Source of the DNA: Amphiscolops sp. MND2022 | Taxonomy: Eukaryota | Direction: 5' to 3' | Length of the DNA: 64,000 bases | Assembly: GCA_964187785.1 (NCBI GenBank) | Contig: OZ076415.1 | Span: 66,526,001-66,590,000 of the forward strand | Part shown: positions 40,767 to 61,463 of the stretch, in pieces | How positions within the stretch are numbered: position 1 is the first letter of the stretch | How the letters are laid out: every line of letters begins with the position of its first letter | The notes under the pieces: model-generated | Databases searched by the model: none | What the model was told of the DNA's origin: nothing | The model's input: the letters and a program-made list of their open reading frames with translations, nothing else | Program-made: the position numbers and the translations under genes

Positions 40767-42034
40767 TACAAGTTTTTTGAATTCGTGTCGAACTCATCGT
40801 TGTGATCCGTGTCGTAGCAGTCGTTAGCTTCTTCTGGTTGTGTAGTCTGGCTTGTCGCTTGCGTAGCTTGGTAGGTTCGCTGATAGTTGTTTTGCGATCG
40901 TTTGAATTCACGACGGAATTCGCGATTTTCATTGGTGGACTGCTTGTCATATGGTACATTTCGGTAAGCCGATGCACCTGGTACCCTGTCTCTGCAGTCC
41001 CGTGCGGAATGTCCGATCTTGCCACAAATTTGGCCAACTAGTTTGGAGTTGTATCGTGGTTTTTCGGTTTCTTGTTGTTGGGCATTGTTGTTTCCAGGTT
41101 GGGGACGTTGTTGTGACTTCTTCGTTATTCCGTTGGCTTCGTCCCTGAGGCGTTTGCGGCATTCGATCCACTTGTGGCCCAGTATGTTGCAGTATCTGCA
41201 ATTTCCTTCGAATCTTCGTTTGACTTCTCTTGTGGCGTTCTTCTCGGTGTTGTTGTGGTTGGGGGCCGGCTGAACGTTGTTTTGTTTCGGTTGGTAGTGG
41301 TAGACCTTGTTAAGTTGCTGCATGTCTGAGGTGCCAGGGAGCAATTGTGCATATTGGCAACGGCGTTGTACAAACGTCTTGATATCTTCCACCTTGGCAT
41401 CGTGTTTGCTTGCCATGGCAAGTTCATTTTGGATCTGGATTGGCAGTTTTGCAAACAAAAATGTCTCGGCAATGTCGTTGGCTTTGTCTCCATACGCTTG
41501 TTTAGCGAGTTTCTTGTATTTGGTGAGGAAATCGGCAAACGACTCCTTCGTGGGGTCGTACCTCATCTGGTCGAATTTATACTTCGATACCTCTCTGAGG
41601 TCCTCCTTTGCATACTCTTTGTTGAATGCTTGCAGGACGTCGTGGAGTGTCGTTTCGGTTGTGATTTTTAGGGTTTGCCAGAATTCTATGGCCTTGTCTC
41701 GGAGCAAGCTCTGAAAGTAGTTCAGTTTCTGATCTTCTGTCAGTTTATTCATGTGTGGGCGGAGGTGGTTTTTCAGTAGGTGTTCGAATTCAATATATTT
41801 GTCTCGGTTTCCGCGGAAGAGAGGGACTTGAGTTTGGAGGATTTTGGGCTGTATCACTCCATCAGTCATTGTTGTCCCTAGATTGTGGATTTCGGTCATG
41901 ACGTCGTCCATTTGAGGGTCATTGGTGGATGGTGCACGGTTTCTGGTGTGATTGGTTGCAGGGGTTGGAAGGGTCCTGCGTAGCTGTTGGAGGTTTGGAG
42001 TCGGGATTGAGTTCGTGGAGACTCCTGTCACCAT
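40766..42034 (-). CDS. gag: Element B gag (main part; N-terminal ~107 aa at 61468-61787, separated by element C)
   Basis: VPLFRGNRDKY capsid-like region; CRYCNILGHKWIEC and a second damaged knuckle; A AAA AAC slippery site just before the stop. Confidence 0.92.
   Translation of the reverse strand: MVTGVSTNSIPTPNLQQLRRTLPTPATNHTRNRAPSTNDPQMDDVMTEIHNLGTTMTDGVIQPKILQTQVPLFRGNRDKYIEFEHLLKNHLRPHMNKLTEDQKLNYFQSLLRDKAIEFWQTLKITTETTLHDVLQAFNKEYAKEDLREVSKYKFDQMRYDPTKESFADFLTKYKKLAKQAYGDKANDIAETFLFAKLPIQIQNELAMASKHDAKVEDIKTFVQRRCQYAQLLPGTSDMQQLNKVYHYQPKQNNVQPAPNHNNTEKNATREVKRRFEGNCRYCNILGHKWIECRKRLRDEANGITKKSQQRPQPGNNNAQQQETEKPRYNSKLVGQICGKIGHSARDCRDRVPGASAYRNVPYDKQSTNENREFRREFKRSQNNYQRTYQATQATSQTTQPEEANDCYDTDHNDEFDTNSKNL
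42021..42033 (-). promoter_or_regulatory. Primer-binding site of element B (TGGTGACAGGAGT, tRNA-Leu-like)
   Basis: Starts with TGG immediately after the reconstructed LTR end CA; tRNA identity tentative. Confidence 0.75.
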
Positions 42035-42035
42035 G

Positions 42036-44225
42036 TGTAAAGGTTCGTGTGGGTTTAGGAAAATTAGTTTTCTGCGATTCTTAGTCAGTTGAGCTTAGGA
42101 GTTAGCTTGCGACTATGCCTTCCTAAACCTTTACAAAAGTTGTCTCTAGGTCTTCCGAGTTCGCAGGAAGGACTTTGTTTCGAGAGAAGAGTTTAATTTT
42201 ATAAAAAGAATTTGAATTAGGTTGAGTATTATATTCAACAATGTTCGTTTTTACACAATACGCAAGAATATAATACAAACAGAATAATATAAGCATCCAA
42301 ATTGACACAAGTATCCAATCAATAATATCTGGATTGTTTAACATTCACCAAAATAAATACGTTAATGTATTAATATAGCAATATTCAGGTAAGTTGTTAG
42401 AGTACTGTAAAAGCTGGAACTTTGGAGTCCTATAACGTCCAACAATTTGTTAGGACGAAGAGTATTGGATTTTTTGATCTGTTCAGACCTTTTTCATGTC
42501 TTAGTATTCTCAACAAGAATGTGAGATTAGTTAAGTCTGTTGACAAAGGTATGACAGGTTTGTCAAAGGCTCTAGCTTATAAGAAGCTGAAGAGTTTAAA
42601 TTGTGAAGTTTTAACTTATATAACCAGCAATAGCTAGGTCGAAGACAAGATTGTATAACGTCAAGACTTTGAAGAAGTCTTGTAACTCTGGGTAAAGCAA
42701 AATCTTATTAACCAGCGTTTAGCTAGGTTTTGTGTTTGGACAGGCTTGCCAATGGCTGCTTGAACATAAGGTTCAGTGCAGTGTTTTAAGAGTTTAGCCT
42801 ATTGCAATGGACTAGCAGGTTTGCTAAGTCGAAAAAGAGACAAGGTTGTCTAACGTCAAGACTTTGAAGAAGTCTTGTAAGTCTAAGTGAGGTAAGGGTC
42901 TTATTAACCAGCGTTTAGCTAGGTTTTGTGTTTGGACAGGCTTGCCAATGGCTGCTTGAACATAAGGTTCAGTGCAGTGTTTTAAGAGTTTAACTTATGT
43001 TGTGACTAGCAGTGGCTAAGTCAAAAGGAGACAAGATTGTCTAACGTCAAGTCTTTGAAGAAGTCTTGCGAGTCTAATTTAAGTAAAGGTCTTATTCAAC
43101 CGCGTATAGCTAAGTTGTTTTTTTGTACAGAATTGTCAGGGAACTCGAACTTAAGGTCCGACTAAAGTAAATTGAAAGATTATATGCATTTTAGGTTTTA
43201 ATTTTAATTTAAGTTAAGATAAAAATTAACTTTAACTAGCATTTGCTAAGTCTTGACGCGATAGCGTACTTTAGAGAAAAAATAAGTCTCAATCAAGAAT
43301 CTGGTTTATTTGGAGCGTTTAGCTCAAAATATAAATCCCTATGATTGCATAGGAGAACCTTGTTGGTTAACTTTTTGTTCAGTCGAATGACTGTAAATTT
43401 GTTGTCACGAAGACAAGAATAAAGCAAAAAGGAAGAAATTTTGATTGTGAATTTTGTTGTTAATTTCTTAGTTAAAGAAAATAACTTACCTGAAAAGCGA
43501 AGTGAGTGGAGGTTTGGAGATTTGTTTGTTTTTTGAGAGGAGGAGAGTGACGGATTTGATTTTGTTTGAGAGGTGAAAGACTATGAGAAGCGTATGATCG
43601 TCTTTAGAAATGTTGGCCCTTTTATACAAATCAAAAGGCACGTGCAACCAATCGCATTGATCGGTGCATTTTATTGGATACGAATAAATAACGTCACATT
43701 CTCGGTCCTTGTTCGGGATTAACCTCGGGACCAGGCATGGCCGAGTACAAGTCGGCAAGAATTGCATCAGCTAGTCATTTAACTCGGCTAGCCGAGTTGG
43801 CTGATGCAATTTTTGTTTATGTCAGGGGAAATAGACTCTTAAGTGGGGACTTTTGGTCTCGCTTGAATAATCTTTTGTTCTCAAATTGAGAAGCTCCGGC
43901 CGCACAAGTGGCGCCTATTGTTCTCTTCTCAGAGATATTTGCTCGCACAAGTGGCGTCGCATATTGTCTTTTTCAAAAGAATAAAAGAGAATTATTTGCA
44001 CAAGTGGCAAGCGTCTTTTTTGTAAAGGGGAATTTGTTCTTTCAAGTGACGCGCAGTTGTGAATTTGTTCACTTCTAAAATTCTTTCAAGCGTGCCTTGA
44101 AAATTGAAAGAATGCGAAAAATGAGTTACGGAAAATGAATAATTTTATTCTAGCTCCGATGAAAGATTCTTAGATAAATGTTTTAGGAATATTAAACTGA
44201 AGAAAAAGATGTGTTGAACACAACA
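42036..44225 (-). repeat. 3' LTR of element C (2190 bp, with ~2.5 internal ~193-bp tandem units at ~42640-43130)
   Basis: Direct repeat of 59269-61463, roughly 25-30 differences by eye (~99%). Confidence 0.97.
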
Positions 44226-44248: not shown

Positions 44249-45001
44249 TTAAGTTGAAAGGGGGGGATACAGGGTGTTTATGACTTTTACTTCGAAGAAT
44301 ATGGAATCGTTTTTCAGCCAAGGGTTTTCGGAATTCATTAGTTCATCAAGAGGGATGAAACACAAGATGGTGACGGCTGTGTTGCTAGATGTAGGTATGA
44401 GTTTCTTGAAGCACTCACTGTTGTTGTTGTTTGTCACAATCAGCTGCTTGTAAGGCTTGGATATGTTTCCCTGGCCGAGCAGGTGGATCTCAATGACGCC
44501 TTGAAAAGGCCAAATGAGGATCTCGTCATAGGGCCCGGGACACATAGCCAAGCACACTGACATGTATTTTCCTTTAGCAGTGTGGATCCCAAAGGGGTAG
44601 GCTCGAAGATGGAAAGTGTAGCCAAAGGGTTGCGAGAAGAAAATAGGGCTGCAAAGATCTTTTAGGCTGTTAGGATCACAATAGGGTGCTCTTACATGAG
44701 ACAAACTCTTTTCGTATTTATCCGCATTTTTTAGAATATCGGTAAACTGATCGAGTCTCCAAATGACTCTGTATAAGTTCCAATCCCGGGGAATTGACTT
44801 TTTTTCTATACGTAGAATACGCATTTCCAGTGCATCAAGTCTTTTGTTTACCTCGTGTGTGCGGTCCGAATCTTTTGATTCATCGGTGTAAGGGGTGATG
44901 TTTACTTTTTGTCGCAGTAGAAGTAACTCGTTAATTAGGGAGTCTGTCAGGGATCGTTCGTCTTCTAGTTGTTCAATGATGGTGGATAAGCTTGAATTCA
45001 T
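44249..45001 (-). CDS. TRAF-like protein (coiled coil + MATH/TRAF-C domain, no RING or zinc fingers), 250 aa
   Basis: VIWRLDQF, SPIFFSQPFGYTFHLRAYPFG, YMSVCLAMCPGPYDEILIWPFQG, CFIPLDEL, WLKNDSIFFEVKV match the TRAF-C strand motifs; intact, intronless. Confidence 0.92.
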   Translation of the reverse strand: MNSSLSTIIEQLEDERSLTDSLINELLLLRQKVNITPYTDESKDSDRTHEVNKRLDALEMRILRIEKKSIPRDWNLYRVIWRLDQFTDILKNADKYEKSLSHVRAPYCDPNSLKDLCSPIFFSQPFGYTFHLRAYPFGIHTAKGKYMSVCLAMCPGPYDEILIWPFQGVIEIHLLGQGNISKPYKQLIVTNNNNSECFKKLIPTSSNTAVTILCFIPLDELMNSENPWLKNDSIFFEVKVINTLYPPLST

Positions 45002-47711
45002 CTTGAGTTATAGTTCTGAAAGAGAATACAAAATCACTTTTAAAAAATGCTGAAGTGCCTCTAAGGGGCACTACTATTCGTTGATAGCCTAGAATGGGAT
45101 TTTCTAGTGTAAATTCTTGGCGGTTTGGATCCCAGAAGACAATATGCCACTGGTTACATTCTCGTTTCAAAAGATAATTTAAATCGAGTTGAAATCGGGG
45201 ATTTCTGGTGAAGGAATATCTGTTGGCAGCCTCTTCAATCTTTCGTTGTCGGCGTAGTGATTCTTGAACACCAAAAGTAGTCTTTTGCTTTTTATGAGAT
45301 TGTTTGATGGGTGATGGATGAGGTCGCTTGGACGGTAAGGGAGTTGTTTTCAGGCTGTTTGGTGGAGGAGGCGGTGCTGTTTTGACAGTGCCTTCAGCTA
45401 TTGTCTCAGTTGGGAGGAAGTCAAAATCTGATGGAGAAAGCAGAGGAAGATCGATCAAGTCGGCGTTGTCGGGTTTTGGTTCACTGGTTAGCGACTCTAT
45501 TTCTTCTGCAATTGATTTTTCGTTTTGCATGTTCTGGGTACTAAACACAAAAACATGAAAGTACAGTTTTACTGGTGAGACCGTATGGATGGTTGATGTG
45601 GGGGGTCTTGTTATGGCAGGATAAATATGCTCAAGAGTCTCGTGCTCATTGTAGTTTTTGTCGGGTGGAGTACTTGAGGTCATTGGGTCATGTTGGGGAA
45701 TCTGATTTAGCGTTGATATCATTGATACTGTAAACAAATTGTAGGTTGCTGAGAGGAGTATTTTACCGATACCCCAAGAAGCTCCTGTTACTCGGTGTAG
45801 TTCAAATGAGCGAAATGTTATGACGATTACATTAACCAAAAACTTGATAAGAAGAAATCCTCCAAACCATTGTCCCAGTTTGCTAAACCAGTATTCAATG
45901 ATACCAAAGGTGCTAATGAACTGCTCTTTGAAGTATCCTGGCGATATCATGTTGTCCACGTAGAAGTCTGTACGTGGTGCATAATAACCAAACTCGTCGG
46001 GGCCTTTGTTGGAGGCTGAAGGTATGATGAGTTCCCGTGAAAATTTTTGTAAAGCTTTTCTGGATGCTGCGCTAATCAAAATATTGTCCCAAAAATCACT
46101 GAGCTGTCCTTTTGTATACATTCCAGCATCCTGAGATTCATCGAAAGTATCCTTGGTAAAGGGAGAAATTTCTTTTGGGCCAAAGATGGCAGGTCTGTCT
46201 CGATGTGTGGGTTCTGGGTTTAACGAAAACCAGGAGTCCTTGTCTTGCATGTCCAGTTGATAAAGATTTTTGATTCTGTCCGTGCAGTTTTGAGTATTTG
46301 CATTAGGATAAGTTTGTCGGGTGATGGGATCTACGAATTGGATTTGTCCTTTGTAAAAGATGGGTGTTTTGTCATAACAATTACTAATAACATGAAGGGG
46401 TGATGATATTAAAGGACAGGAGTAGAGCCAAGCAAGACTGCCATCAGTTTCAAGGAACATAGATCTGTTTCCAGTTAGCATATATCCTGCAAGGCGTGGA
46501 TTTTCCAAAGAGAGCATCAATATAGTGAGTACTTGGGTCCTTTCTTGCTCACATTGGTTTTTCAACATTTGAATCTCAGACGATTGAAGCGCTCGAGTGC
46601 TTTCGAAAAATAGGTAGTCCAATTTTGTACCAACTTGCATTTCGTAGTCCATATGGAGCCAAGTATTTACATACTTGTCTTTAACTGTGGCGTCTCTGTT
46701 GTATATGTAAAGTCCAGGTTTCCCAGAGTTGTCTGTGGAGTATTGGAGGGTATAGAATCCTCTTGTAATTCCCATTTTTCTTCCAGAGGCCATGTCAAAT
46801 CCACCAGTATGTATTACAATGTACATGGACTCGTAATTGGTTGGGTAAACATCATTCGGTTTATTACAGAATTTCTGGGGGTAGTTTTTCACTTCGAACA
46901 AGAATTTGGAAGTGGAGGCGTTAGTACTCACCATGTGATATCGATGTTCATTTTTAATCATGTTCACTTGTTCTTCCTTCAAAACCGACAATACGCAATT
47001 ATCTGGGTGATCCCATATATAAGCATAAGGATCTAAGGATGTGCTTTGGCAACCCAAATCATCGAGTTTACATGGAAGGGGATTCCCATTTACATTATGT
47101 ACTGTTCCGTCTCTCAGTTTAACTGGTAGAGTCACCTCTTGGATGTGGCTTTCAAAAGTGTCTTTGGTCATCCAAGACCTTCCATTGCAATGGTTCCTAT
47201 TTTCCTCGCTTTTCTTCCCATTAGTATAGGATTGAACAAGTTTTGTCGCTTTTTTGAACTGGACCATGTGGTCGAGTATTTGTATTTTTCCTTCTTCCCG
47301 TGCCCTTCTGCATTGTTCTTTGCTCAGGTCGATATCGCTTGTGATTGTGTTTTGTTCGGCGTCAATACTTGCATGGTCATGATATCCATAGTGCCACTTG
47401 AATCTACTGTGCTTTAGACGGCACATAGTGGCGTTGAGTTCTGTTCGGAAGTGCTTTGTGTAGACAGTGATTATAGCTGGGTTGATTTCAATGTTTTCTG
47501 GGGAAACGTGGCAGGGTCTCACTTGATTTAGTGCATACAATTTGTTTTCAGTCATCTCTCCACAATCATAATGTGACACACTGAGTCTCTGTGCAATGTC
47601 GTCCAGATTGGGGTTCGGAAGGCCATTGATGAGGGCGTAGCACGTAATGAGCATTACAAAGAACTTACTGCACATTTTGGATCTAATGGGGGGAATCTTA
47701 GGCATTGCCAA
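44973..47711 (-). CDS. env: Envelope glycoprotein, chuvirus-G/herpes-gB-like (class III), read through into a ~185-aa downstream segment
   Basis: Signal peptide after M47675; HYDC..LNQVRPC; QCEQER..ENPRLAGYMLTG..DGSLAWLYSC..CYDKTPI..VDPITR..C Cys pattern; TM segment WFGGFLLIKFLVNVIVITF. Confidence 0.85.
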   Translation of the reverse strand: MAMPKIPPIRSKMCSKFFVMLITCYALINGLPNPNLDDIAQRLSVSHYDCGEMTENKLYALNQVRPCHVSPENIEINPAIITVYTKHFRTELNATMCRLKHSRFKWHYGYHDHASIDAEQNTITSDIDLSKEQCRRAREEGKIQILDHMVQFKKATKLVQSYTNGKKSEENRNHCNGRSWMTKDTFESHIQEVTLPVKLRDGTVHNVNGNPLPCKLDDLGCQSTSLDPYAYIWDHPDNCVLSVLKEEQVNMIKNEHRYHMVSTNASTSKFLFEVKNYPQKFCNKPNDVYPTNYESMYIVIHTGGFDMASGRKMGITRGFYTLQYSTDNSGKPGLYIYNRDATVKDKYVNTWLHMDYEMQVGTKLDYLFFESTRALQSSEIQMLKNQCEQERTQVLTILMLSLENPRLAGYMLTGNRSMFLETDGSLAWLYSCPLISSPLHVISNCYDKTPIFYKGQIQFVDPITRQTYPNANTQNCTDRIKNLYQLDMQDKDSWFSLNPEPTHRDRPAIFGPKEISPFTKDTFDESQDAGMYTKGQLSDFWDNILISAASRKALQKFSRELIIPSASNKGPDEFGYYAPRTDFYVDNMISPGYFKEQFISTFGIIEYWFSKLGQWFGGFLLIKFLVNVIVITFRSFELHRVTGASWGIGKILLSATYNLFTVSMISTLNQIPQHDPMTSSTPPDKNYNEHETLEHIYPAITRPPTSTIHTVSPVKLYFHVFVFSTQNMQNEKSIAEEIESLTSEPKPDNADLIDLPLLSPSDFDFLPTETIAEGTVKTAPPPPPNSLKTTPLPSKRPHPSPIKQSHKKQKTTFGVQESLRRQRKIEEAANRYSFTRNPRFQLDLNYLLKRECNQWHIVFWDPNRQEFTLENPILGYQRIVVPLRGTSAFFKSDFVFSFRTITQDEFKLIHHH

Positions 47712-47759
47712 AACTTCTTTTTGTGAAGGGCAAAATGTTAAGAGTGGTTTACGAGAGGA

Positions 47760-48100
47760 GAATTAAACGGTAGCTTGCTAACCGAGAGTTGGTGGAGTCG
47801 AATTTGACAATCCAGTTGAAATCAAGGTTGATTTGACTGATGAAGACTGCTTTTCAGAATGACTGAAAGTGGACAAAATTTGTCTATTGTCTTCAACCAA
47901 ACCAAAATTTGGATATAAATTTGGTAGTTTGCTAACCAGAAGTCGAAGGAGTCTAACTGACTACCCGATGCGAATCAGAATTGATTCAGACGTGATGATG
48001 TTTTCAAGAACTGAAATGAGAAAAATGTTGTCTAATGACTTCAACTAAAGCGAAAGTGAATAAACGTTTGGTAGCTTGCTAACCAAAGGAGGGTGTAGTC
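47760..48100. repeat. Three imperfect ~150-bp direct repeats upstream of env
   Basis: Core ggtagyttgctaacc at ~47769, ~47924 and ~48069. Confidence 0.6.
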
Positions 48101-48310
48101 AAAGTGACCACTTCTGTAGTTTTGAGATTGGTGCACGAGTCTATAAATTGAGTTTCAGTATCTGGCTCGATTGATAGCCGTTTTATAAGCATTGAAAGTA
48201 CACTCTGTTATCAGAAGTGAAGTTATGGGCTTTGGATTTGAAAATGGGATAGTGAGGTGGGATTATAAGAATTTATTCAACACAAAATACAAGGTTCTAG
48301 TTTATGAAAT

Positions 48311-48978
48311 TTACAAATCATAAAATTTAATAAGATCCGTGTACAACTGGTTATATTTAGGAGAGGTGACGCATTCGATATCCATAACACTGGTTAATTC
48401 TCCCAGCACATCTAAATCAAATTTGGTGATGTGTCTTTCGGGTTTGTGTTCATACGAAATGAGGGAAGCGGCTAGTGATGCATATAGGAAAGTGTTCTTG
48501 TAGATTTGTCTCTGGTACTTTTTGTCGGGCAAGTCGTAACGCTCAAAATGGATGCAAATTTTGAATCCGTAGGTCCAAGTCCACCGAACATAGGTAATCA
48601 AAAACTTTTTGTTGTTTTCACTAACGAAAATTGTCCAGGGGCAATTGAAACTGCGTTCTTCGCATTTCTTCTCCCAAAGGGTGTCCCAGTAGATAGTAGG
48701 AAAATGATAGCTTTGTGTAATTCTCGATTTTGCTCTGTTGCGCGAGTCTTTTTTGAGAATAGACTGTGGGTTCATTAGAGTCAAACAAATCTGTAGGTAT
48801 GTCTCCCACAAATGTCATAAGATGTAGAAAATAGTTCCAGTAGACTGATTGTCGATCTACAAAAACAATGTCCCTTTTTGAAGTGATGTGGTGTTTTAGG
48901 TAGATATAAATTCTATCTTGGTCCAGCTCAGTTTTATAGATCCTGTAGAATGCGTTTTCAATTTTGATGTAAGTCATA
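48311..48978 (-). pseudogene. Element C accessory ORF (~220 aa, aromatic-rich, one frameshift), unknown
   Basis: Overlapping ORFs 48621-49013 and 48311-48811 join near 48710. Confidence 0.55.
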
Positions 48979-48996
48979 CGATGAACTGAAATAATC

Positions 48997-49482
48997 AAAA
49001 GTTTTTTACCCACGGCAGAGATTGATAACTGAGATCGTTACCGTGCTGAAAAGTTTTTTACCCACGGCAGAGATTGATACTGTGATCGTTACCGTGCTGA
49101 AAAGTTTTTTTACCCACGGCAGAGATTGATACTGTGATCGTTACCGTGCTGAAAAGTTTTTTACCCACGGCAGAGGTTGATACTGTGATCGTTACCGTGC
49201 TGAAAAGTTTTTTACCCACGGCAGAGATTGATACTGTGATCGTTACCGTGCTGAAAAGTTTTTTACCCACGGCAGAGATTGATACTGTGATCGTTACCGT
49301 GCTCGACTTTTTGAAAGGTTTTTTACCCACGGCAGAGATTGATACTGTGATCGTTACCGTGCTCGAATTTGAAAAGTTATTTACCCACGGCAGAGATCGA
49401 TAACTAAGATCGTTACCGTGCTTGATTTTTTGAAAGGTTATTTACCCACGGCAGAGATTGATAACTAAGATCGTTACCGTGC
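48997..49482. repeat. Tandem array, 9 copies of a 51-60 bp hairpin-forming unit
   Basis: Unit aaaagttttttacccacggcagagattgatactgtgatcgttaccgtgctg; CACGG/CCGTG and GAT/ATC inverted pairs. Confidence 0.95.
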
Positions 49483-49584
49483 TAAGCTGAAATGAATGAT
49501 TATATATGAGCTATTAGTTTAAGTTAAGATGACAGCGAAGAGAAGGGAAAAGGATTGGGTAAGAAGAAGACTTTTATGTACAAT

Positions 49585-50106
49585 TTAAAAGTCGTCCATT
49601 TCTTGCCAAAGCATCACGGTTTCTAATATGTCTATATACATATCTTTATAGTTCGAGCTCCGGCAGGTAGCATCCATTTGGTCTGTTATGGCGCTCAAGG
49701 CATCAGTATCCTGTTTAGACAGTTGCGGTTCTGGTTTCCTTTTGTAAGTGACTAGAGCTGCTGTCAGAGACATGTAGAGAAATGATCCCGGTTTTAACCA
49801 TTTATGGTACGCTTGCTTTGACCTGTAGTTGTGGAATCGAATTTCCACATCTGCTGCTGGATGCCAGCTCCAGTTAAACTCTTGTACAATCATGGAAGTC
49901 TCTTCGACTTCGGGCATCACATTCCATGTGCAATTGAAATTGATTTTATTGATAACGATGATTGGAATGTCATGAAAGACGGGCTTCATCTCTGGTTGAA
50001 TTTGGCTGAAAGTTGACTGAAAAGAAAGACAATGTTCGAAAATGCTCCTTGGCTTATTTTGTAAAATTTGAACAAGTTTTACGGTTGCAAGAGCTTGACT
50101 TTGCAA
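49585..50106 (-). CDS. Element C accessory ORF, 173 aa, unknown (start uncertain)
   Basis: Open frame with protein-like composition between pol and env. Confidence 0.5.
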   Translation of the reverse strand: MQSQALATVKLVQILQNKPRSIFEHCLSFQSTFSQIQPEMKPVFHDIPIIVINKINFNCTWNVMPEVEETSMIVQEFNWSWHPAADVEIRFHNYRSKQAYHKWLKPGSFLYMSLTAALVTYKRKPEPQLSKQDTDALSAITDQMDATCRSSNYKDMYIDILETVMLWQEMDDF

Positions 50107-50872
50107 AAGACAAAATTTTATACTTTTGTGTTTTTGTTCTTTTCACAAGGTTCTCCTTTAGCAGGGCTTTGTCTTATTTCTTTTGTTCTCCTACTACTTT
50201 TGTTTTCTTTTGTAGTCTTTGTAATGTGATTTTTGTGTTCTTTTGTTTTCTGCATGCTTTTGTTATTACATGCAGTGACTTCTTTTATTAATTTCTTCTA
50301 ATTGTTGACTCCTCTTTTCCGTTTTCTTTGGTTTGCATCATTGGCTTTCATCTGTTCTTTTTATTAAAAACGCGCTTTTGTTGTTGAAGAACTGTGGGTG
50401 CCATGTGTGTTTTTGAAGTTTGCTTTGTAGTGAATGCGCTTTTGTCATGGTTTAGTTCTTTTGGTTGCCATGTGGTTTCAAGTGGTTTGAAAAATTGTTT
50501 GTTCACAATGTGCTTTTGTAATGGTTCAGTTCTTTGGACGCCATGTGTGTTTTTGAAGTGGTAGCTTAAGTTTGACTTGTGTTGAGTGCGCTCTCGGATG
50601 TTAGTCTGATCTCTTCAAATTCACAAGTAAGTTCGTTTTCGGTTTTCGTTTTTCTTGAATTTTTGTTATCGTGTATATGACACGCTCGACCGCCGAAAAA
50701 GGAATAGAAAAGTTGTAAGCATATAGTGGTAAAAATTGGGAGAAAAATGAAAAACGGTGTTGAGCAGCAAAGTGTGAGAGGAGGAAATTTTTAAATGGTA
50801 TAAGGGGGGGTGGTGAAAATGAAATTTGAGATTGCAAGTTAGTTGTTGTTATTTAGACTTTTTCTTTGCACG

Positions 50873-51466
50873 ATGAACCGCTTGCCCTTTTCTACCGCAA
50901 ATGACGCGTATTTGGCGCCAGATCTTTTTGCTGACATGCGAGCGTTGGTAACTGACCTGGAGCTTCCGATGATGGCGGGAACAACACCGGAAAGTGAAGT
51001 TCTGCGGCGCCCAGAACCACTTCGGAGAGCAGTGAGGTTGGCGTTAGGAGAACACGTAAGTTATTGAGTAGGGTGGCTTCTAAGCACTATAGGGGAGGTT
51101 TTTTTTGTATTGTTTTTGTCACGGATATAAGAAGGGAACAAAGTTGTCGTTCTGAAAGTTGATTGTACGTGTTTCGTAATTGTGATTTCCAATCGTGATA
51201 GTTTGTTTTAGTGGAGAAAGAAGCTATCGCACGGAGCCAAAGATGTGTGGACTTTTAAACTTAAGGCGATAGTGCAAGGTTGGGAGAAGACTTCTCCACA
51301 AGACCGGGCCAATATAGCTCGACGGTTGGACAGGAGCCAATTCTTCGAGGTCCTCCAAGAGCTAGCCTTAGCAGGAGGGTACATGGTGTGTTTGTGCGCT
51401 GGACACCCTAAGCCACCTCCTAATGGGGCAACCGTTGTCCCCTTTGAAAGGGAAGACTTATTATAA
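50873..51466 (+). CDS. Two-exon antisense gene inside element C (145 aa, unknown)
   Basis: Exon 50873-51055 (ATG, 61 codons); donor GTAAGT; 156-nt intron ending tttgttttag; exon 51212-51466 in phase 0, open to the stop. Confidence 0.7.
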
Positions 51467-51658: not shown

Positions 51659-51855
51659 GAGGCTTGTTGATTAAAACATCAACAGTCACAGTGCTATCTA
51701 TTCCAGGCAGTTCGACCATTTAAGGCGAACCGCCATAGCACATTTTTTCTTTGTGGTTTTTGTCTCTTGGGAAGACTTGTTGAAGAAAACCGTCAACAGT
51801 CACAGTGGTATCTATTCCAGGCAGTTCAACCATTTAAGGTGAACCGCCATACCAC
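51659..51855 (-). ncRNA. Duplicated cis-acting RNA stem-loop (2 copies, 114-bp period) downstream of pol
   Basis: Stems GTGSTAT/ATASCAC and GGCGGTTCR/YGAACTGCC with two compensatory substitutions between the copies. Confidence 0.6.
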
Positions 51856-52255
51856 GAATTTTTCTCTAATACATGGAGAAGTGATCCAATTAAAGATTTT
51901 TGGTAAAAATCTCGTGCTTGAGTGAGGGGTTCCAAAAAGGTATACCAGTGAAGTGTAGGCTATTGCCAATTTTCTCGTAAAAAAATTGTGGTTGCTGTAT
52001 CCAATGGGTCACTAGGCAGCCACTTTGTTTGTGACTACGTAAGAAAAAAATTGAAGTTTTTTTTTGAAAAATGTTTCAGGAGTGTGTTCGGAGGCTTCCT
52101 GGTGAGTCTCATGACACGGTGAAGTGTGTGTAGTTCCGGATTGTCTAAGTATATAATTGTGAAGAAGAAAAGGTAAATCGGGATTTTGGCGGAACGGAAG
52201 TGTTAGAGATGTGAAAAGATTTTATTATTATTATTATTATTTTTTAATTGAAATT

Positions 52256-55200
52256 TTAATCTTTATAACCTTTTCTCTCAATGTCTCGGAGGGAACTACC
52301 AGGGGTGCTTCGTTCGTATTTAGGATTTTTGGGTTTTTCGGAAAACCGTGTAGTTACTTTTTTCTTGAAGTTAGATAACTTTCCTGTTTTTGGGGAAATT
52401 TGATCGGGGGGAGACATTGTATGGATAGGAGGTACGGACGGGAGAACCGGTGTTCTTTTAGGTAGGGGAGTATTGGAAGAGAAAGCGAGTGGCAATACTG
52501 CCAAGGGAAGGCGTGGTGTTTGCATCGGTGGAAGTGGATTTGTTCCACAGCTTTGATAGGAACGTTCCCTCGGAACGGTGTTGTTAGACGTAGATGGTAT
52601 TGGGGTGTGAAATTGTGGGGTTTTCGGAGAGAGGAATCCAGAATCGGTACTGGGGGAAAATTCAGAACTTTTTGTAATGTTGTTGTTCGGCCCAGAAAGG
52701 GGGGTTATGATGAGTGGCATAAAATCTAGTTTGTGCTCAGATTGTCCTGAATTGTGTTTGTCAATTTGACTCTGGATCAAGTGCTTGTAAAAGTTATCAT
52801 CTTGTTCTATGGGAGCGTAATTTGTTAGCAATGGGGGCAAGGTCTCCTCTTTGGGGAAATATTCTAGTAAGTGGTTTCGATGAGTGGTTTTTACGTTCTC
52901 GGGGTTTTCATCTTCTTTTATCTCGTATGTGGTGTTGGTTATTTGTCTTGTCACCGTGAAAGGTCCTACTCGTAATTGTTTCAATTTCTGTGATTTGAAT
53001 AGGTCGGGTTTATGATTCTCTAGGAGAACCTTTTGACCGACTTCGAGCGGTCGTCCCAGTTTGAAACGGTTCCGATACTCATGAGCCTTTGATGTGATTT
53101 CTCTACATCTTTTGTAGGTGGATGAGTAGATGGACTTGAATTCGTTTTCTCTTGTAAGTAGCTCGGAAGATAACTGTGGTTTAAGGAGTCGATCAAGGGA
53201 CTTGTTTCGGAGGTTATTTTCACTGTGGGTGTGAGGTTGTAAATCCGCACAAAACTCCGATTTGCATAGTTTGTTTTTGTCGCGAATAAGTCCGAGTTTC
53301 AGCGTCATGGGTATTTGTGGTTTAACGCCAAAAACAATTTCGTAAGGAGTCAAACCCCGTTGTGTAGTTTACGCTCGTATTATGGGCAAAGGCAAATTTA
53401 GATGCAAGTGTTGACCAATTGTTTCCTGACTCGTTGGTGAAGTTCCTCCAGTATCTCATGAGATGTTTGTTCTGGACTTCCACTTTGCCGTTCGTCCAAG
53501 GCGAGTATGCAGTGCGCGGTGCCAACGTTATCCCAAATTCTTTTGTCCAATTTCAAAATCACGGTTGATGAAAGCTGAGCCATTATCGTGGACGATTTTT
53601 TGAGGGATGCCGTAGGATGTAATCCATTTTTCTAGTGCATTGATTGTAGTCTGAGCTCCTGTATCTCGAACAGGATAGACTCCGAGAAATCTTGAAAATG
53701 CATCTACTACAACTAGACAATGTGTGTTCAAGTTACTGCTTGGTCTAATAGGTCCTTTGTGGTCGATATGAATTGTTTTGAAGGGGGTTGTTTCGAGTTC
53801 GCCCCACTGCTTAAGAGGCGCTTCTTGTAAGTCGTGTCGCTTAGACTTGTTAGTCTGGCATTGTAAACAATCCTCTATTAGAGATACTATCCATTTATAT
53901 CGTCCAGGCCAAAAAAAATTCTGTCTGATGTTTTCGAATGTTTTGAATATGCCTGGATGGCCGCTGTGAGTGTGAGCATGAGCTAGGTTGAAGAGGGGTA
54001 GGAATAAGGATAAGGGGACACAGATTTTCATCTCGTATTTGTCTGTTCCATGAACGGGTTCATTATAGCAGAGTAGATTGGTTTCTTTATCGAGAAAAAG
54101 TTGGTTAAAATTATTGAAATACGATAGTAAGGCCCTCGATTGTTGTATTTCGGGTGTTTTGGTGGTTGGCTTGTTTTGGTTTCTAACCCAGGATCGTACT
54201 ACTTGTAATACGGGGTCCTTAATTTGTTCTGCGACTAGAGTAGGGATATCCAGATCAGCGACCTTAGAATAATCACTCAGTTTTTGTAGGAGATCTTTAG
54301 TGTCAACGTGTGGGAACTGCTCCACGTCTGAACTTTTATTTAATAGTGGTCTTCCAACCTTTTGTAGAATGTTCTTTTCCTTTGCCGTTGATTTATCACG
54401 GTAGAACTCGTGATCTCCGCTGGAAAGGTGGAGTTCGGCGACATCTTCTTCGTCATCACTAGAGTCTGTTTCAATTTCGTCTATTCTACTATATTCGGGT
54501 TCGCACTGCATTTTGTATGGGGGAAGACAGAGGTTTTTGTATTGGTTGATTGACTTCCCCAATTTAAAACAATCGGCGATGTCTTGTCGAGTCGTCATTA
54601 CTGTTTGTTGGTTCTCGTAGTGTTCTACTTCATGTTCCTCTCCATCGTACTTGAGATGGAGTAGTCTTTGATCTTTGCCCGTTTGACAAAGGATAGGAAA
54701 AAAGTCATTGGTTCCACACTGACCGTCGTCATTGTGCTCGATTGTATAATGTATTTTCGATCCGAATTCGTCAAAGAAACTGATATCTCGCGGTATTTCT
54801 TTGTGGAGTTTCTGCAAATTTTTCCTTTCCTCCAATGTGACGTTCCGACTGAGTATATCTGGAAACGCGAGATTAGATCCTTTAGTCCAGATGATTTTGA
54901 GGTTTTGGAACTTGGTAATTATTACCTGGTATTTGAAAAAGCGGTGTGAGAGTTGTCCTTTCCGCCCCCAAAGGTATAGGATGGGTTTGTGATCGCAATA
55001 GAGGTATATTGGGAATGGAGATCCAATAATGTAGTGTTCGTATGTTTGAAGTGCTGATACTATACCACACAATTCACGGTGAAGGGTGGACATTTTTTGT
55101 TCAGCCTTGTCAAATACGCGCGAATTGAAAGAAACTATCCTTTTGCCTTCTGGAAACTGTTGCACTAAAATACAACCGGTACCAACATTCGAAGAATCGA

Positions 55201-56536
55201 CATGTATGTGGAAGGGGTACTCAGTTGAAGGGACAGCAAGAATAGTGTCTTCACATATACGGCTTTTTATATCAGTGAAGAGGTCTTCGTGTTCTTTTGT
55301 CCATTTGAAAGGTGTTGTAGATTTGATCAAGTCGTAGAAGGGTTGACTGTCCACATGTAAGTTCTTTATATAGCAACTATAAAACCCAAGACAGCCAAGT
55401 ACTTTCATCACATCCCTTTTACTTTCGGGTGATTTTAGGTTTTTGAGATCTTGTACTCGTTTTGCTAAGGGCTGTATTCCTTGTTCAGAAATAACATGAC
55501 CCAGGAATTTGACTTTTCTAATGAAGAAGTTTGTCTTCTCAGGTGCAGCTTTAAGTCCGGCTTTTCTCAGGAGTTGATGGTACTCGTGAATTATTGTGAA
55601 CATTTCTTGTTTTGTTTGAGCCTGCATTAGGCTGTCATCAAGGTAGGTGATAGCTTGTTTTCGTTTAATAAGGGGCTCAAAGTGTATAGCCATTAAACGA
55701 CTAAAAAAGTTTGGAAGTCCACAGAGTCCGTAAAAACCACGTATATACGTATACTGTTTTCCGCCGGTGATGAAACTAGTGAGCTTTTGGGTCTCGTCGC
55801 TCAATGGTACTTGGTGATATGCGCAAGATAAATCGCTGACTGTGAAGTACTTTCCATTGATTCGAGTCATGATCATCTGTATGGGTTCCAATGGCCACGA
55901 GTAATTTGTTAAATCTGTTATAGAATTCAAGTAGCGGGCATCGATTACTAGTTTTACGTAGTCTGCTTTGGGCATTAGAATGATCGGATTGACAAAAAGG
56001 GAACCTAATTCGTCATCGTCTCCCATTTCTCTAATGATATCAGCTTCTTGGAGTTGTCCAAGTAGCTTCTCAAGTTTGTCTTTCAAGTGAAGGGGTACTT
56101 TGCTCGGTCGTTGTTTTTTGAGTTCCGAATTTGCTTTGAGGGTTACATGAAATTTTTGACGTACTTTTCCCACGTCGAATTTGTGTTGTGAATACACGTC
56201 TGCTGCGTCAATAAGCATATCTATTAGGACAACCAATTCTTCATCTTGGAGGTCAGTATATCGGAAATCGAATTTTTTCACATATTCCTTGGTTTCTTCA
56301 CGCTGATATTGGAGGTAGTTTTCTATCAAAGCGTCGTTATCTTCTTTTGTTCTAAGTTCAACAAATTGTTCTGTACAGGGTGGCTGACAAGATTTAGCGT
56401 CCTTAGCAAAATCTGTTTCAAGTTCTTCAGTGCCATTAGCAAATTTTTCCATATAATAGTCAATATCTCCCTCTTCTACTTCTTCTTTTCGTATGGAAGC
56501 ATTAACAAATTGAAGGTTTGCTTCTTTTTGTGACAC
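52256..56536 (-). CDS. pol: Element C pol: RT, RNase H, integrase (frameshifts at ~53530 and ~53350), long Pro/Ser tail
   Basis: VKLVIDARYLN, TYLDD, HVDSSNVG..FPDILSR, HAHTHSGH..CLQC, IDHKG..HDNG..GKVEVQN, VGPFTV. Confidence 0.96.
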
Positions 56537-57720
56537 AATCTCAACTTTAATATGTCCATAATCGAACGTGTTACGAATGATGTCTAACGCTTCTTTCCAG
56601 CTGATGTTGTCTAAGCCATCTTCATTTTTGGCTACTGAAATTGCAGATATATTGTTTAGTTGTGCGTGTCCGAACAGATTTTCAATGCAACTACGAAAAT
56701 CTTCGGGTCTAATTTTTTCGTAACACCTTTTTTTGCAACTAGCCCATAGATGAAGCGATTGGCTTCGTTATCCCAAAAGGGTAGAGCCGATCCAACGAAG
56801 GGTTTTGATTGGTTTACGAAATTTTGGAAATCTTTTTTCTGTTCACATAACTTTTTCGCAAATGTGGTTGTCATTTTTCCGTCTGCCGAGACACAAAAAG
56901 CTAAGTTTGCATTTGATGTCCGCAGAGTCTCGCCAGAGCCGTGGCTTAGAAAGACTTGTTGATCTCCTTCGTGCTCGAAGGGAACTGTTGAGTGTAGTAA
57001 GAAACAATCATTGTATTCTGGGTTTTCCTTCAATATTGTGTTGACCATCGTGACACAATCTTTTACCTGGAACTTCGGTCGTTCCCTTTCCTGTAGATCT
57101 ATGGTAGAATGACCAATTATCCCTCTATTAAGGGTTATTTGGTGATTTCGATTATTTTCAATCAAGATTGGCAGATGGGGTTCGGATTTCGTACATAAAA
57201 CATTCACAAAGGTAAGCCCTGTTTTGACTGCATTTTTGTGGGGTGTGAATGATGTTCCGGGTGCAAAATGTCTATTGTTCTCGCGAGAGTATTTATGTAG
57301 ACGGGTGGTTTTGGCATCGATACAAATTGGGTTGTCTGTTCGTACTGTTTCGACTTTTGAAACGTAAGGGAAAGGTTTGGTAGCACAAAGGTTACCGTTG
57401 CAAATTGTGTTAGGACTATCTTTCAATTCGATTGCGGGCAAATCAAAATGTAATTTAGAAACAAGTTGACGGCAGAAATCTATTCCCAGTAAATTGGGTG
57501 TCTTCGCTTCTGTTATCCAAAACTTTAGTTCTACGGGATGGAATCCATCCGAGTCGAAGCTAAATGTGATTGTTGTTGATCCGAGCATCGGTATAATTTC
57601 ACCAGTATAGGTTTTAGTCAGTTGCTTGCTTCTAACTACCGTGATGGGTTGTCCAAATTGTGCAATTTCCTCAAAAGCTCTATAATTGATAATCGAGCAG
57701 GCTGCTCCAGTGTCTAACAT
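56535..57720 (-). CDS. pol: Element C protease + dUTPase-like spacer + TARG1/OARD1-like macrodomain (56535-56960, 1-nt frameshift in the T7 run at ~56728-56734)
   Basis: MLDTGA; LPILIENNRNHQITLNRG spacer; LAFCVSADGKM..KPFVGSAL..FIYGLVAKK|RCYEKI..ISAISVAKNEDGLDNISW..IKVEIV. Confidence 0.85.
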
Positions 57721-57831
57721 AAATGCTATTTCTAACCCACTATCTTTTTTGGAGTCTCCGGTGGGAAAAAAAGAAGAGATTTAGGTGAAATCGTGATTTG
57801 AGGTTACTTTCTTAGTCAGGTCGCGGAGACT

Positions 57832-59226
57832 TTAACAGTTTAAAGGGTTGAATGAGATTGTACTGACTCTGTCCTGTCCTTCTTCGTCAACGAACTGTAC
57901 GGAGTTTGGGAAACTGTTATTGTTGGTTGGGAAATTCCTATTGTACTCGGAATTTGTGTTTTGTGGTCGGGCACTGAAGTTATACGGGCTATTTGGCCTA
58001 TTTCCAGTATAGGGAGTATTGTTTCGCAAATTAGTATTAGTAGGAGTCGGCCTACTACCTGAAGAGTGATTGTTGTTGCTATTGAAATTGTTGAAGTTGT
58101 TCGGCTGTTGAGGGTTATTTCGGTTCCAGTTATCATTTCGGTTGTTTCCCTCGTTAGGTCTGCCTCTATTGAAGTTTTGGTTAGACTGTTGGTTATTCCT
58201 CTGATTATTAGTGAAGTTCGGTCTTGATGAGGGCTGATAATTTTGTTGTGACCCAAATCCGGGTCCCTTCCGTTTGTTGTAATCGTTAGTGAAGGTGACC
58301 TTCTTCTCTTCATTAGCTCTTGATTGTGCTCTCTTGGCTTCGTCATCATAGATCTTTTTGCGGCAATATTGGAGTGTATGACCATTTCTTAGACAATATT
58401 TACAAAATCGTGTGATATTTTGGCGGGACGTATTATTTACGTCTACTGCAGAAATGTGGTAGTCGTGACAGTGGGAGGGTGAGCACCCGTAAGATAAAGG
58501 ATTAGCTACAGCTAAAGAACTGAATTGTTGTTCTTTTAGCATATTCTTCATTGCATTTATGTCTTCTCGTAGTTCAATTATCAATGTTTTTTGATTTTGT
58601 GAGGAATTCGGGGCTAACTGCGAGCTGATAGTAAAAACAAGGTCTTTATTAGTTACGTGTTCCTGAAATTGTTCCCAAGTAGCGTTGGGGTGTTCAATTA
58701 AGTATTGGTGAGCCTTGTTCTTGAGTTCGTTTGGCGTTAGTCCTCTGACTGCGAATTCAATATACTTTTGTCTTCTTTGGGCATTCAGTGCAGCTCTGGC
58801 TGCGTTGTCCGCATTTTCTTCATCTGGCCATCCTCTATCGACAGCTCGTTTCACCCGGTAAATGTAGTTCTTTATTATTTCTTCATTTCCTCTGACACTG
58901 TTTTCTGCAGTTATTCTATATCTGTATTTATCTCTATTGTCGGAAAAACGGGTTAGAAAATGTGTTCTGATGTGCTGCCAATCGTGTCCGTCTTCTATGT
59001 TATCTGTGTACCATTCGGCGGCAGGTCCTCTTAGGAGAGATGAAAAAAGTGCCTTTTTTCGGAACAAGTATCTTGCTCGTTCGTCATCATTGTCGGGTTC
59101 ATGGCCCATCGAGAAATTGATTTTATTCTCAACAGTTGTGAGAAATGATCTAACATCTTGTTCAGGATCGTTTCCTGAGAATTTGTCCAACGCGAGGTCT
59201 GGAAATGAGACTGTATTATCCGCCAA
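57832..59226 (-). CDS. gag: Element C gag (TTG start in this copy), CCHC knuckle, N/Q-rich tail, T TTA AAC slippery site
   Basis: LDKFSGNDPEQDVRSFL, LRGPAAEWY, CKYCLRNGHTLQYC. Confidence 0.92.
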   Translation of the reverse strand: MADNTVSFPDLALDKFSGNDPEQDVRSFLTTVENKINFSMGHEPDNDDERARYLFRKKALFSSLLRGPAAEWYTDNIEDGHDWQHIRTHFLTRFSDNRDKYRYRITAENSVRGNEEIIKNYIYRVKRAVDRGWPDEENADNAARAALNAQRRQKYIEFAVRGLTPNELKNKAHQYLIEHPNATWEQFQEHVTNKDLVFTISSQLAPNSSQNQKTLIIELREDINAMKNMLKEQQFSSLAVANPLSYGCSPSHCHDYHISAVDVNNTSRQNITRFCKYCLRNGHTLQYCRKKIYDDEAKRAQSRANEEKKVTFTNDYNKRKGPGFGSQQNYQPSSRPNFTNNQRNNQQSNQNFNRGRPNEGNNRNDNWNRNNPQQPNNFNNFNSNNNHSSGSRPTPTNTNLRNNTPYTGNRPNSPYNFSARPQNTNSEYNRNFPTNNNSFPNSVQFVDEEGQDRVSTISFNPLNC

Positions 59227-59248
59227 TCTTCTCTTTTCCTTGTATGTG

Positions 59249-59265
59249 CCTCACTGGTCGCACCA
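59249..59265 (-). promoter_or_regulatory. Primer-binding site of element C (TGGTGCGACCAGTGAGG)
   Basis: TGG start 3 nt after the 5' LTR; cognate tRNA not identified. Confidence 0.75.
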
Positions 59266-59268
59266 GTT

Positions 59269-61463
59269 TGTAAAGGTTCGTGTGGGTTTAGGAAAATTAG
59301 TTTTCTGCGATTCTTAGTCAGTTGCGCTTAGGAGTTAGCTTGCGACTATGCCTTCCTAAACCTTTACAAAAGTTGTCTCTAGGTCTTCCGAGTTCGCAGG
59401 AAGGACTTTGTTTCGAGAGAAGAGTTTAATTTTATAAAAAGAATTTGAATTAGGTTGAGTATTATATTCAACAATGTTCGTTTTTACACAATACGCAAGA
59501 ATATAATACAAACAGAAGAATATAAGCATCCAAATTGACACAAATATCCAATCAATAATATCTGGATTGTTTAACATTCACCAAAATAAATACGTTAATG
59601 TATTAATATAGCAATATTCAGGTAAGTTGTTAGAGTACTGTAAAAGCTGGAACTTTGGAGTCCTATAACGTCCAACAATTTGTTAGGACGAAGAGTATTG
59701 GATTTTTTGGTCTGTTCAGACCTTTTTCATGTCTTAGTATTCTCAACAAGAATGTGAGATTAGTTAAGTCTGTTGACAAAGGTATGACAGGTTTGTCAAA
59801 GGTTCTAGCTTATAAGAAGCTGAAGAGTTTAAATTGTGAAGTTTTACCTTATATAACCAGCAATAGCTAGGTCGAAGACAAGATTGTCTAACGTCAAGAC
59901 TTTGAAGAAGTCTTGTAAGTCTGGGTAAAGCAAAATCTTATTAACCAGCGTTTAGCTAGGTTTTGTGTTTGGACAGGCTTGCCAATGGCTGCTTGAACGT
60001 AAGGTTCAGTGCAGTGTTTTAAGAGTTTAGCCTATTGCAATGGACTAGCAGGTTTGCTAAGTCGAAAAAGAGACAAGGTTGTCTAACGTCAAGACTTTGA
60101 AGAAGTCTTGTAAGTCTAAGTGAGGTAAGGGTCTTATTAACCAGCGTTTAGCTAGGTTTTGTGTTTGGACAGGCTTGCCAATGGCTGCTTGAACATAATG
60201 TTCAGTGCAGTGTTTTAAGAGTTTAACTTATGTTGTGACTAGCAGTGGCTAAGTCAAAAGGAGACAAGATTGTCTAACGTCAAGACTTTGAAGAAGTCTT
60301 GCGAGTCTAATTTAAGTAAAGGTCTTATTCAACCGCGTATAGCTAAGTTGTTTTTTTTGTACAGAATTGTCAGGGAACTCGAACTTAAGGTCCGACTAAA
60401 GTAAATTAAGAGATTATATGCATTTTAGGTTTTAATTTTAATTTAAGTTAAGATAAAAATTAACTTTAACTAGCATTTGCTAAGTCTTGACGCGATAGCG
60501 TACTTTAGAGAAAAAATAAGTCTCAATCGAGAATCTGGTTTATTTGGAGCGTTTAGCTCAAAATATAAATCCCTATGATTGCATAGGAGAACCTTGTTGG
60601 TTAACTTTTTGTTCAGTCGAATGACTGTAAATTTGTTGTCACGGAGACAAGAATAAAGCAAAAAGGAAGAAAGAAATTTTGATTGTGAATTTTGTTGTTA
60701 ATTTCTTAGTTAAAGAAAATAACTTACCTGAAAAGCGAAGTGAGTGGAGGTTTGGAGATTTGTTTGTTTTTTGAGAGGAGGAGAGTGACGGATTTGATTT
60801 TGTTTGAGAGGTGAAAGACTATGAGAAGCGTATGATCGTCTTTAGAAATGTTGGCCCTTTTATACAAATCAAAAGGCACGTGCAACCAATCGCATTGATC
60901 GGTGCATTTTATTGGATACGAATAAATAACGTCACATTCTCGGTGCTTGTTCGGGATTAACCTCGGGACCAGGCATGGCCGAGTACAAGTCGGCAAGAAT
61001 TGCATCAGCTAGTCATTTAACTCGGCTAGCCGAGTTGGCTGATGCAATTTTTGTTTATGTCAGGGGAATTAGACTCTTAAGTGGGGACTTTTGGTCTCGC
61101 TTGAATAATCTTTTGTTCTCAAATTGAGAAGCTCCGGCCGCACAAGTGGCGCCTATTGTTCTCTTCTCAGAGATATTTGCTCGCACAAGTGGCGTCGCAT
61201 ATTGTCTTTTTCAAAAGAATAAAAGAGAATTATTTGCACAAGTGGCAAGCGTCTTTTTTGTAAAGGGGAATTTGTTCTTTCAAGTGACGCGCAGTTGTGA
61301 ATTTGTTCACTTCTAAAATTCTTTCAAGCGTGCCTTGAAAATTGAAAGAATGCGAAAAATGATTTACGGAAAATGAATAATTTTATTCTAGCTCCGATGA
61401 AATAATCTTAAAGAAATGTTTTAGGAATATTAAACTGAAGAAAAAGATGTGTTGAACACAACA
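59269..61463 (-). repeat. 5' LTR of element C (2195 bp)
   Basis: Direct repeat of 42036-44225. Confidence 0.97.

Follow-up and report, generated by a model that had tools for sequence, protein, structure and literature searches.

A doubled RNA hairpin behind the pol gene of an LTR element in Amphiscolops sp. MND2022 is real and under selection. It lies in a 64,000-nucleotide stretch of DNA, hereafter the window, and each of its two units carries a 29-nt core that is common to four envelope-bearing lineages and to a Pol III-type RNA family in one genome, for which a 1.07-Gb assembly was searched. The stems around the core are a scaffold, covarying or replaced between families, while the core itself stays fixed. 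We consider it very probable that the core is the functional unit and that it acts as RNA.

Both units are contained in a 19.4-kb LTR element on the minus strand, in which we recognized the following features:

59269..61463, minus strand: 5' LTR, with a TATA box and a conserved splice donor at 60728/60727
52256..59250, minus strand: gag, protease, RT/RNase H and integrase of a Gypsy element
51856..52255, minus strand: variable patchwork from the pol stop to unit 1, 390-790 nt long in 10 measured lineages
50873..51466, plus strand: spliced gene in antisense, with coding exons 50873-51055 and 51212-51466; its prediction rests on splice sites and codon-periodic conservation
48997..49483, minus strand: 9-copy array of 51-60-nt hairpins, conserved in the sister family and weakly complementary to the core
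44973..47762, minus strand: env-like gene (Pfam Monjiviricetes_fusion, E 6e-35)
42036..44225, minus strand: 3' LTR

The pol of the window's copy is split over three separate frames. The GT of the LTR splice donor is kept in 16/16 LTR matches and the longer CAG/GTAAG in 13, and an acceptor-like site stands ahead of the first orphan gene in 9/9. Since the units lie between this conserved donor and the downstream acceptors, they should be restricted to unspliced sense RNA. The first-pass annotation had placed them between pol and an accessory region; they are indeed 3' of pol, but the adjacent gene is the predicted antisense one, whose end is ~185 nt away. A sister family has the same gene order with neither unit nor core (19 of ~94 copies, among the matches listed). 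Its best covariance-model score is 13 bits, and it has many long open pol frames, yet no core. One deletion-derivative junction was examined; it is unique and therefore uninformative on any cis-requirement.

Several other features of the element were recorded. The patchwork at 51856-52255 consists of exchangeable modules with recurrent words that we take to be E2F-like and palindromic, and is possibly an internal enhancer or promoter. A spliced antisense gene behind pol is predicted in both sister families (L111-L130); its exon 2 was modelled as a small helical domain without known family, and in the window and many relatives its stop is followed by a UGUAHAUA word, presumably of the Pumilio type. 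Two orphan genes (49585-50142 and 48311-49037, minus strand) are paralogous, with two or three per element in both families, and the second occupies two frames in the window's copy. The orphan protein model has four strands and three helices (pLDDT 75). Neither it nor the antisense exon-2 protein matched a Pfam family, the best fold matches being Z 4.7 and 3.9, respectively, and family and fold searches assigned neither of them to an RNA-binding family or fold. A MATH/TRAF-domain gene lies between env and the 3' LTR (44249-45007, minus strand), and a 150-nt unit with acceptor-like sites is repeated three times 5' of env (47769-48103, minus strand). Many array hairpins have an acceptor-like word directly 5'. 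The array unit is ~90% conserved in the sister family, where its flanks are unalignable, and its middle is free to vary. Within the LTR there is a 196-nt tandem repeat (59876-60364 and 42643-43130). A different gag-pol region (35830-42094, minus strand), which has a primer-site-like word of its own, begins right after the 3' LTR (42036), as though one LTR served two dissimilar internal regions.

One unit is ~95 nt long, with three hairpins and one internal loop. The parts of the two units are:

51855-51762, minus strand: unit 1, whole
51805..51855, minus strand: unit 1 long hairpin (P1, purine-rich internal loop, P2, bulged U, 6-nt apical loop)
51791..51819, minus strand: unit 1 invariant 29-nt core (internal loop, P1 3' arm, linker, P3 5' arm)
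51778..51798, minus strand: unit 1 small hairpin P3, with a U-rich loop
51762..51776, minus strand: unit 1 small hairpin P4, 13/15 identical to P4 of Pol III-type subfamily H
51741-51650, minus strand: unit 2, whole
51691..51741, minus strand: unit 2 long hairpin
51677..51705, minus strand: unit 2 core, with 2 differences from that of unit 1
51665..51684, minus strand: unit 2 hairpin P3
51650..51663, minus strand: unit 2 hairpin P4, its first 10 nt identical to Pol III-type subfamily F

As had been proposed from the sequence, both copies fold on the minus strand as P1, internal loop and P2, and do so far better than shuffles. The long hairpins reach -24.6 and -25.9 kcal/mol (z -5.3 and -5.1), with 1/200 and 0/200 shuffles as good, and their z-scores are the lowest two of 646 windows spanning the whole element. 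The two compensated pair changes claimed between the copies were confirmed: the long hairpins differ at four positions, which make up exactly these pairs, G-C/C-G in P1 and A-U/G-C in P2 (simulated chance 9e-5). The G.U pair said to be specific to the minus strand is kept in 117/121 units, and the minus-strand fold is more stable than the plus-strand one in 55/57 distinct hairpins. Other parts of the first-pass annotation required amendment. Its second small hairpin, our P3, is present in both units, but a third, P4, which has a compensatory change of its own, had been missed. The internal loop exists, but it measures ~2 x 10 nt rather than being an 8-nt bulge, because two loop-adjacent pairs are often broken across the family (U-A becomes C.A in 55/121 units, and G-C is intact in only 73/121). 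Inner P1 pairs are broken in both single-unit lineages. Covariance model R1 found no third copy in the window. A comparison of both units with Rfam, which had been suggested as a check, returned no match at E<=10, and viral contigs and metagenome contigs held no exact match to unit or core.

To assess conservation we used a family sample of 62 independent loci with 122 units, and pair counts refer to 121 of these, one unit with an indel being left out. Two units are present in 59/62 loci, with a spacing of 114 in 27 of the 59. A unit lies downstream of 56/56 integrase matches with at least 88% identity, and unit 1 occurs in all 30 loci collected by integrase alone. Identity within the hairpin is 0.94, compared with 0.75 at pol third positions (227 diverged pairs). 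The covariation looked for in a multi-copy alignment was found: over 18 rows, 94.9% of cells pair and 0/500 shuffles reach the score, in a control that ignores relatedness. Compensatory changes number six in all, namely one P1 pair, one P2 pair, two further P2 pairs in L121, one in P3 and one in P4; the two extra changes of L121, a single locus, have a chance of 0.004. Variants common to at least three loci keep pairing in 4/6 cases, compared with 10/38 for rare variants. Taken together, covariation, conservation above synonymous sites, G.U polarity and the position between donor and acceptor support the earlier proposal of a selected cis-acting RNA on the genomic strand.

The 29-nt core extends well beyond this family. 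A lower-half match in another envelope-bearing lineage led to a search with the 3' half of the unit, and the core pattern has 3,154 genomic matches, compared with 0 for a reversed control; the corresponding figures for the upper hairpin are 151 and 3. Forty core loci, hand-picked and thus non-random, were taken from among the matches listed and assigned to lineages or subfamilies (16 D, 7 F, 6 G, 4 E, 3 C, 3 H and 1 unassigned). The core is on the transcribed strand in 22/22 loci with an env, pol or gag match. Long matches show the env genes of lineages C, D and E to be 27-42% identical to that of the window; the core lies downstream of env there, in flanks unrelated to those of the window. 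Across 15/15 family representatives, 24 of the 29 core positions are identical; the edges are sharp and the flanks are not conserved. The fold and pairing state around the core vary between families, which would fit recognition of the sequence itself. In lineage D, for example, the core is almost wholly inside a hairpin, its first 22 nt forming one arm with almost no loop. Near-invariance across transposons implies a common host target, or a host factor exploited by different transposons, and points to the core as a shared recognition signal with a candidate partner. In the group of loci L177, L190, L197 and L202, we also observed that the lineage D core falls in an exon-like stretch 5' of a 420-430-residue orphan frame, and that in lineages C and E the final AUG of the core opens a 4-8-codon frame before, and sometimes overlapping, a downstream start.

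The core occupies the centre of rod-like RNAs of 215-230 nt in subfamilies F, G and H, and the ends of these RNAs pair. All six representatives (6/6) have an A box at -88 to -93, a B box at -32 to -36 and a T5 run at +106 to +127 relative to the core, and it is solely from the promoter boxes that we infer transcription by Pol III. Rfam gave no match over the F, G and H RNAs; its matches elsewhere in these loci are generic hairpins, all under the gathering score. This Pol III-type RNA family is undescribed so far and has no Rfam family. The three subfamilies have covarying stems (L186:1307-1533, L200:1656-1885, L247, L254). Near-identical copies of subfamily F number at least 40 (870 candidates), and subfamily G lies within long inverted arms; F and G copies share multi-kilobase flanks and are therefore not independent SINE insertions.

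By sequence comparison, each unit of the window proves homologous to the central domain of the F, G and H RNAs. With the core excluded, the 3' flank of unit 1 matches H (0/500 shuffles), not F or G (50-153), and that of unit 2 gives 0-3/500 in four comparisons with F, G and H and 18 and 29 in the other two; six 3'-flank comparisons with F, G or H thus stand at 0-3/500. The 5' flanks of the units match F (6-8 of 500 shuffles). Against lineages C, D, E and I, the 3' flanks gave no match. The 5' arm of the window's P2 aligns to the B-box stem with the B box itself lost, and none was found in 4/4 family-A units examined. The unit may have been captured into the element and then duplicated; the single-unit lineages suggest that duplication came later than capture.

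One contiguous invariant run within replaceable stems is the signature of guide and antisense RNAs, such as snoRNA guides, small RNAs and leaders. The best explanation overall, which we put forward tentatively, is an antisense or decoy core on a captured unit. The core would pair with a host RNA, and the stems would keep its 5' end accessible in an open loop, where it could serve as a toe-hold; that the core works by such pairing is a plausible proposition, if short of a probable one. The candidate partner is nt 25-46 of U2 snRNA, the branch-point recognition region. A U2 decoy on the unspliced full-length RNA would damp splicing and spare genomic RNA, and the Pol III RNAs might act in trans. 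It is rather unlikely that the host-RNA partner is U2, and a shade less likely again that several transposon families share a 29-nt antisense module against the U2 branch-point region, combining splicing tuning in cis with a Pol III decoy in trans.

U2 is a lead rather than a result. The stretch at nt 25-46 was chosen post hoc, and the test used the host's own U2 gene. Twenty of the core's first 22 nt pair with it, 0-4 of 3,000 shuffles match this pairing, and the core of unit 1 is the best on this stretch of 6,469 23-mers from the element. In a broader control of 598 windows from U1, U2, U4, U5, U6 and SSU rRNA, U2 is the best for the commonest core by 4-5 kcal/mol; 5/150 shuffles reach this score in the snRNAs and 9/150 when SSU is added (family-wise p 0.03-0.06). 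For the core of unit 1, 21/150 shuffles reach the U2 score, and the core of unit 2 favours U4 over U2 (-20.1 versus -17.9). When the entire U2 sequence is the target, none of the nine commonest cores outperforms shuffles (68-539 of 1000). Position 11 of the core, where A and G both occur, is opposite a U in U2, and the duplex leaves out the first base, which varies. U2 pairing does not account for core nt 23-29, whose invariance is just as strong, and in the window P1 and P3 hide part of the core.

A protein could read the core instead. A docking element on unspliced genomic RNA, of the CTE, RRE or packaging type, at which a host or element protein recognizes a purine-rich loop shared by several families, is a strong rival, somewhat less likely in our estimation than pairing with a host RNA. 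The stems covary around an invariant, purine-rich, asymmetric loop, the units lie inside the intron of predicted spliced accessory mRNAs and are duplicated in 59/62 loci, as a docking element might be. Published work describes a Gypsy element with a Rev-like export protein (PMC10309623), duplicated export elements in retroviruses (PMC7551171) and purine-loop sites for Gag (PMC8096270). The contiguous invariance over 29 nt, stem arms included, in folds that differ by family tells against such a reading. A protein site usually needs fewer contiguous invariant nucleotides than this. Moreover, the lineage D core lies between acceptor-like and donor-like sites and is probably in a spliced exon, the core is also found in Pol III-type RNAs, which have no intron to retain, and neither accessory protein has an RNA-binding family or fold. 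With respect to the first-pass annotation, a selected cis-element is upheld, and packaging, dimerisation, CTE-like export and termination stand as candidate functions at most. An element-specific signal for export or packaging would not predict a 29-nt part common to other repeat families and to Pol III-type RNAs. A dimer-initiation hairpin is not borne out: there is no self-complementary loop, and the loop self-duplex is worth only -0.2 to +1.8 kcal/mol in 8/8 representatives. Nor does a unit have the architecture of a CTE, with ~95 nt and one internal loop where a CTE has 150-175 nt and two, and no Rfam match at E<=10.

We regard it as improbable that the core is excised as a miRNA- or piRNA-like small RNA of 22-30 nt regulating a host transcript or the element's own RNAs, with the 51-nt array as a possible target or sponge. 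Its length of ~29 nt, sharp edges and initial U in most families would suit such a product, as would the lineage D hairpin in which its first 22 nt form an arm, and only 5 of 1000 shuffles pair with the array unit as well as the common core form. However, a loop is all but missing from that hairpin; the core of the window and of F, G and H crosses a loop, two different stems and a linker, which does not make it the arm of a precursor; pairing between the window's own cores and the array is weak (50 and 123 of 1000 shuffles); and the middle of the array unit varies freely. Very improbable is a constraint acting elsewhere, whether on an antisense transcript, a plus-strand frame (51671-51925) or a DNA-binding site, or a recent neutral sweep. 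The antisense gene does end ~185 nt from the units, the P3 loop of unit 2 reads ATTAAA on the plus strand, and two variants in the family, C.A and A.C, would form G.U pairs there. Against this, the sense fold is better in 55/57 hairpins, the core is always on the transcribed strand, and its identity is 0.94 versus 0.75 at pol third positions (227 diverged pairs). Plus-strand coding across both units is excluded by their variable spacing (114 in only 27/59 two-unit loci) and by a frame that is open in just 24/54 testable loci. Invariant nucleotides in the variable stems of mobile elements are typical of ribozymes. The units conform to this pattern, being invariant nucleotides within variable stems in a mobile element, but a self-cleaving ribozyme of a new class is the least credible of the readings considered here: there is no Rfam match, no conserved pseudoknot and no hammerhead core word, the earlier statement on this last point holding for CUGAnGA on either strand (0/122 units), and the invariant bases form one contiguous run that includes stem arms and that lies in a different fold in lineage D.

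Various other candidates were rejected. Kissing loops, pseudoknots and tertiary contacts were sought, and none is conserved. For a spliced-leader RNA there is no leader-gene pattern, the 47 exact matches to the core followed by GGT are all or nearly all at unit 1 of the family, and an Sm-like word occurs in only 2/122 units; the published leader of one acoel (PMC9911081) differs in sequence. AUGAN, sought as part of a SECIS element, is present in only 4/122 sense units, an IRE-type CAGUGN on the plus strand is missing its flanking stem, and as a pre-miRNA the stem has 16-18 bp with a large loop. For reference, a SECIS has an AUGA-GA quartet, an IRE a CAGUGN loop on a 5-bp stem and a pre-miRNA a stem of ~33 bp. 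Pairing with a tRNA primer, a K-turn, a C/D-box guide and termination-reinitiation were dropped after inspection by eye for consensus features, the boxes being missing or the frames inconsistent. Two weak hits of covariance model R1 in apparent integrase coding sequence, which we take to be of Bel/Pao type, were discounted as chance matches.

The ways in which full-length RNA is kept, exported and selected by invertebrate LTR elements that have spliced accessory genes form a largely open field, to which this locus offers a short, duplicated, covariation-supported element. Should the partner of the core be U2, we would have a natural antisense element aimed at the reader of branch points in the spliceosome; should it be a protein, the core would be a new RNA-protein recognition module in thousands of genomic copies. 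A literature search by title or start of abstract, largely confined to open-access journals, did not find a description of the motif. The CTE of MPMV/SRV-1, the MTE of musD and the direct repeats of RSV, described as export elements (PMC7551171, PMC5767303), are alike in being structured and non-coding, 3' of pol on unspliced RNA, duplicated and with a conserved internal loop. In contrast to the CTE type, the units here are ~95 nt with three hairpins and not a rod of 150-175 nt with two internal loops, they have no Rfam match and no predicted kissing loop or pseudoknot, and their core is common to Pol III-type RNAs. Rev/RRE systems, which include the Cer1 CERV of C. elegans, share with this element (PMC10309623) the Gypsy background, the predicted spliced accessory genes and the need to export unspliced RNA. 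Here, however, the accessory proteins match no family or fold, and the sister family keeps the accessory genes without the unit.

The NRS of RSV is a retroviral RNA element that binds an snRNP non-productively and keeps genomic RNA unspliced; it mimics a 5' splice site and binds U1/U11. It resembles the antisense or decoy model in its manner of working and differs in that the candidate here is ~20 bp with the U2 branch-point region. The 5S domains of Cassandra TRIMs and the central domains of CORE-type SINEs are Pol III-derived or invariant central domains in mobile elements. By comparison, the source RNA in this genome belongs to no Rfam family, and in most lineages the shared part is only 29 nt. 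Purine-loop packaging sites (PMC8096270) are a possible parallel in mode of action. At the level of the whole element, the HSV/gB-type errantiviruses also combine a Gypsy pol with a Chuviridae-like fusion glycoprotein, according to the main text of their description, from which the words 'antisense' and 'splice' are absent (PMC13524379). Beyond this combination, the element in the window has a spliced gene in antisense, paralogous orphan genes, a MATH gene and the RNA units.
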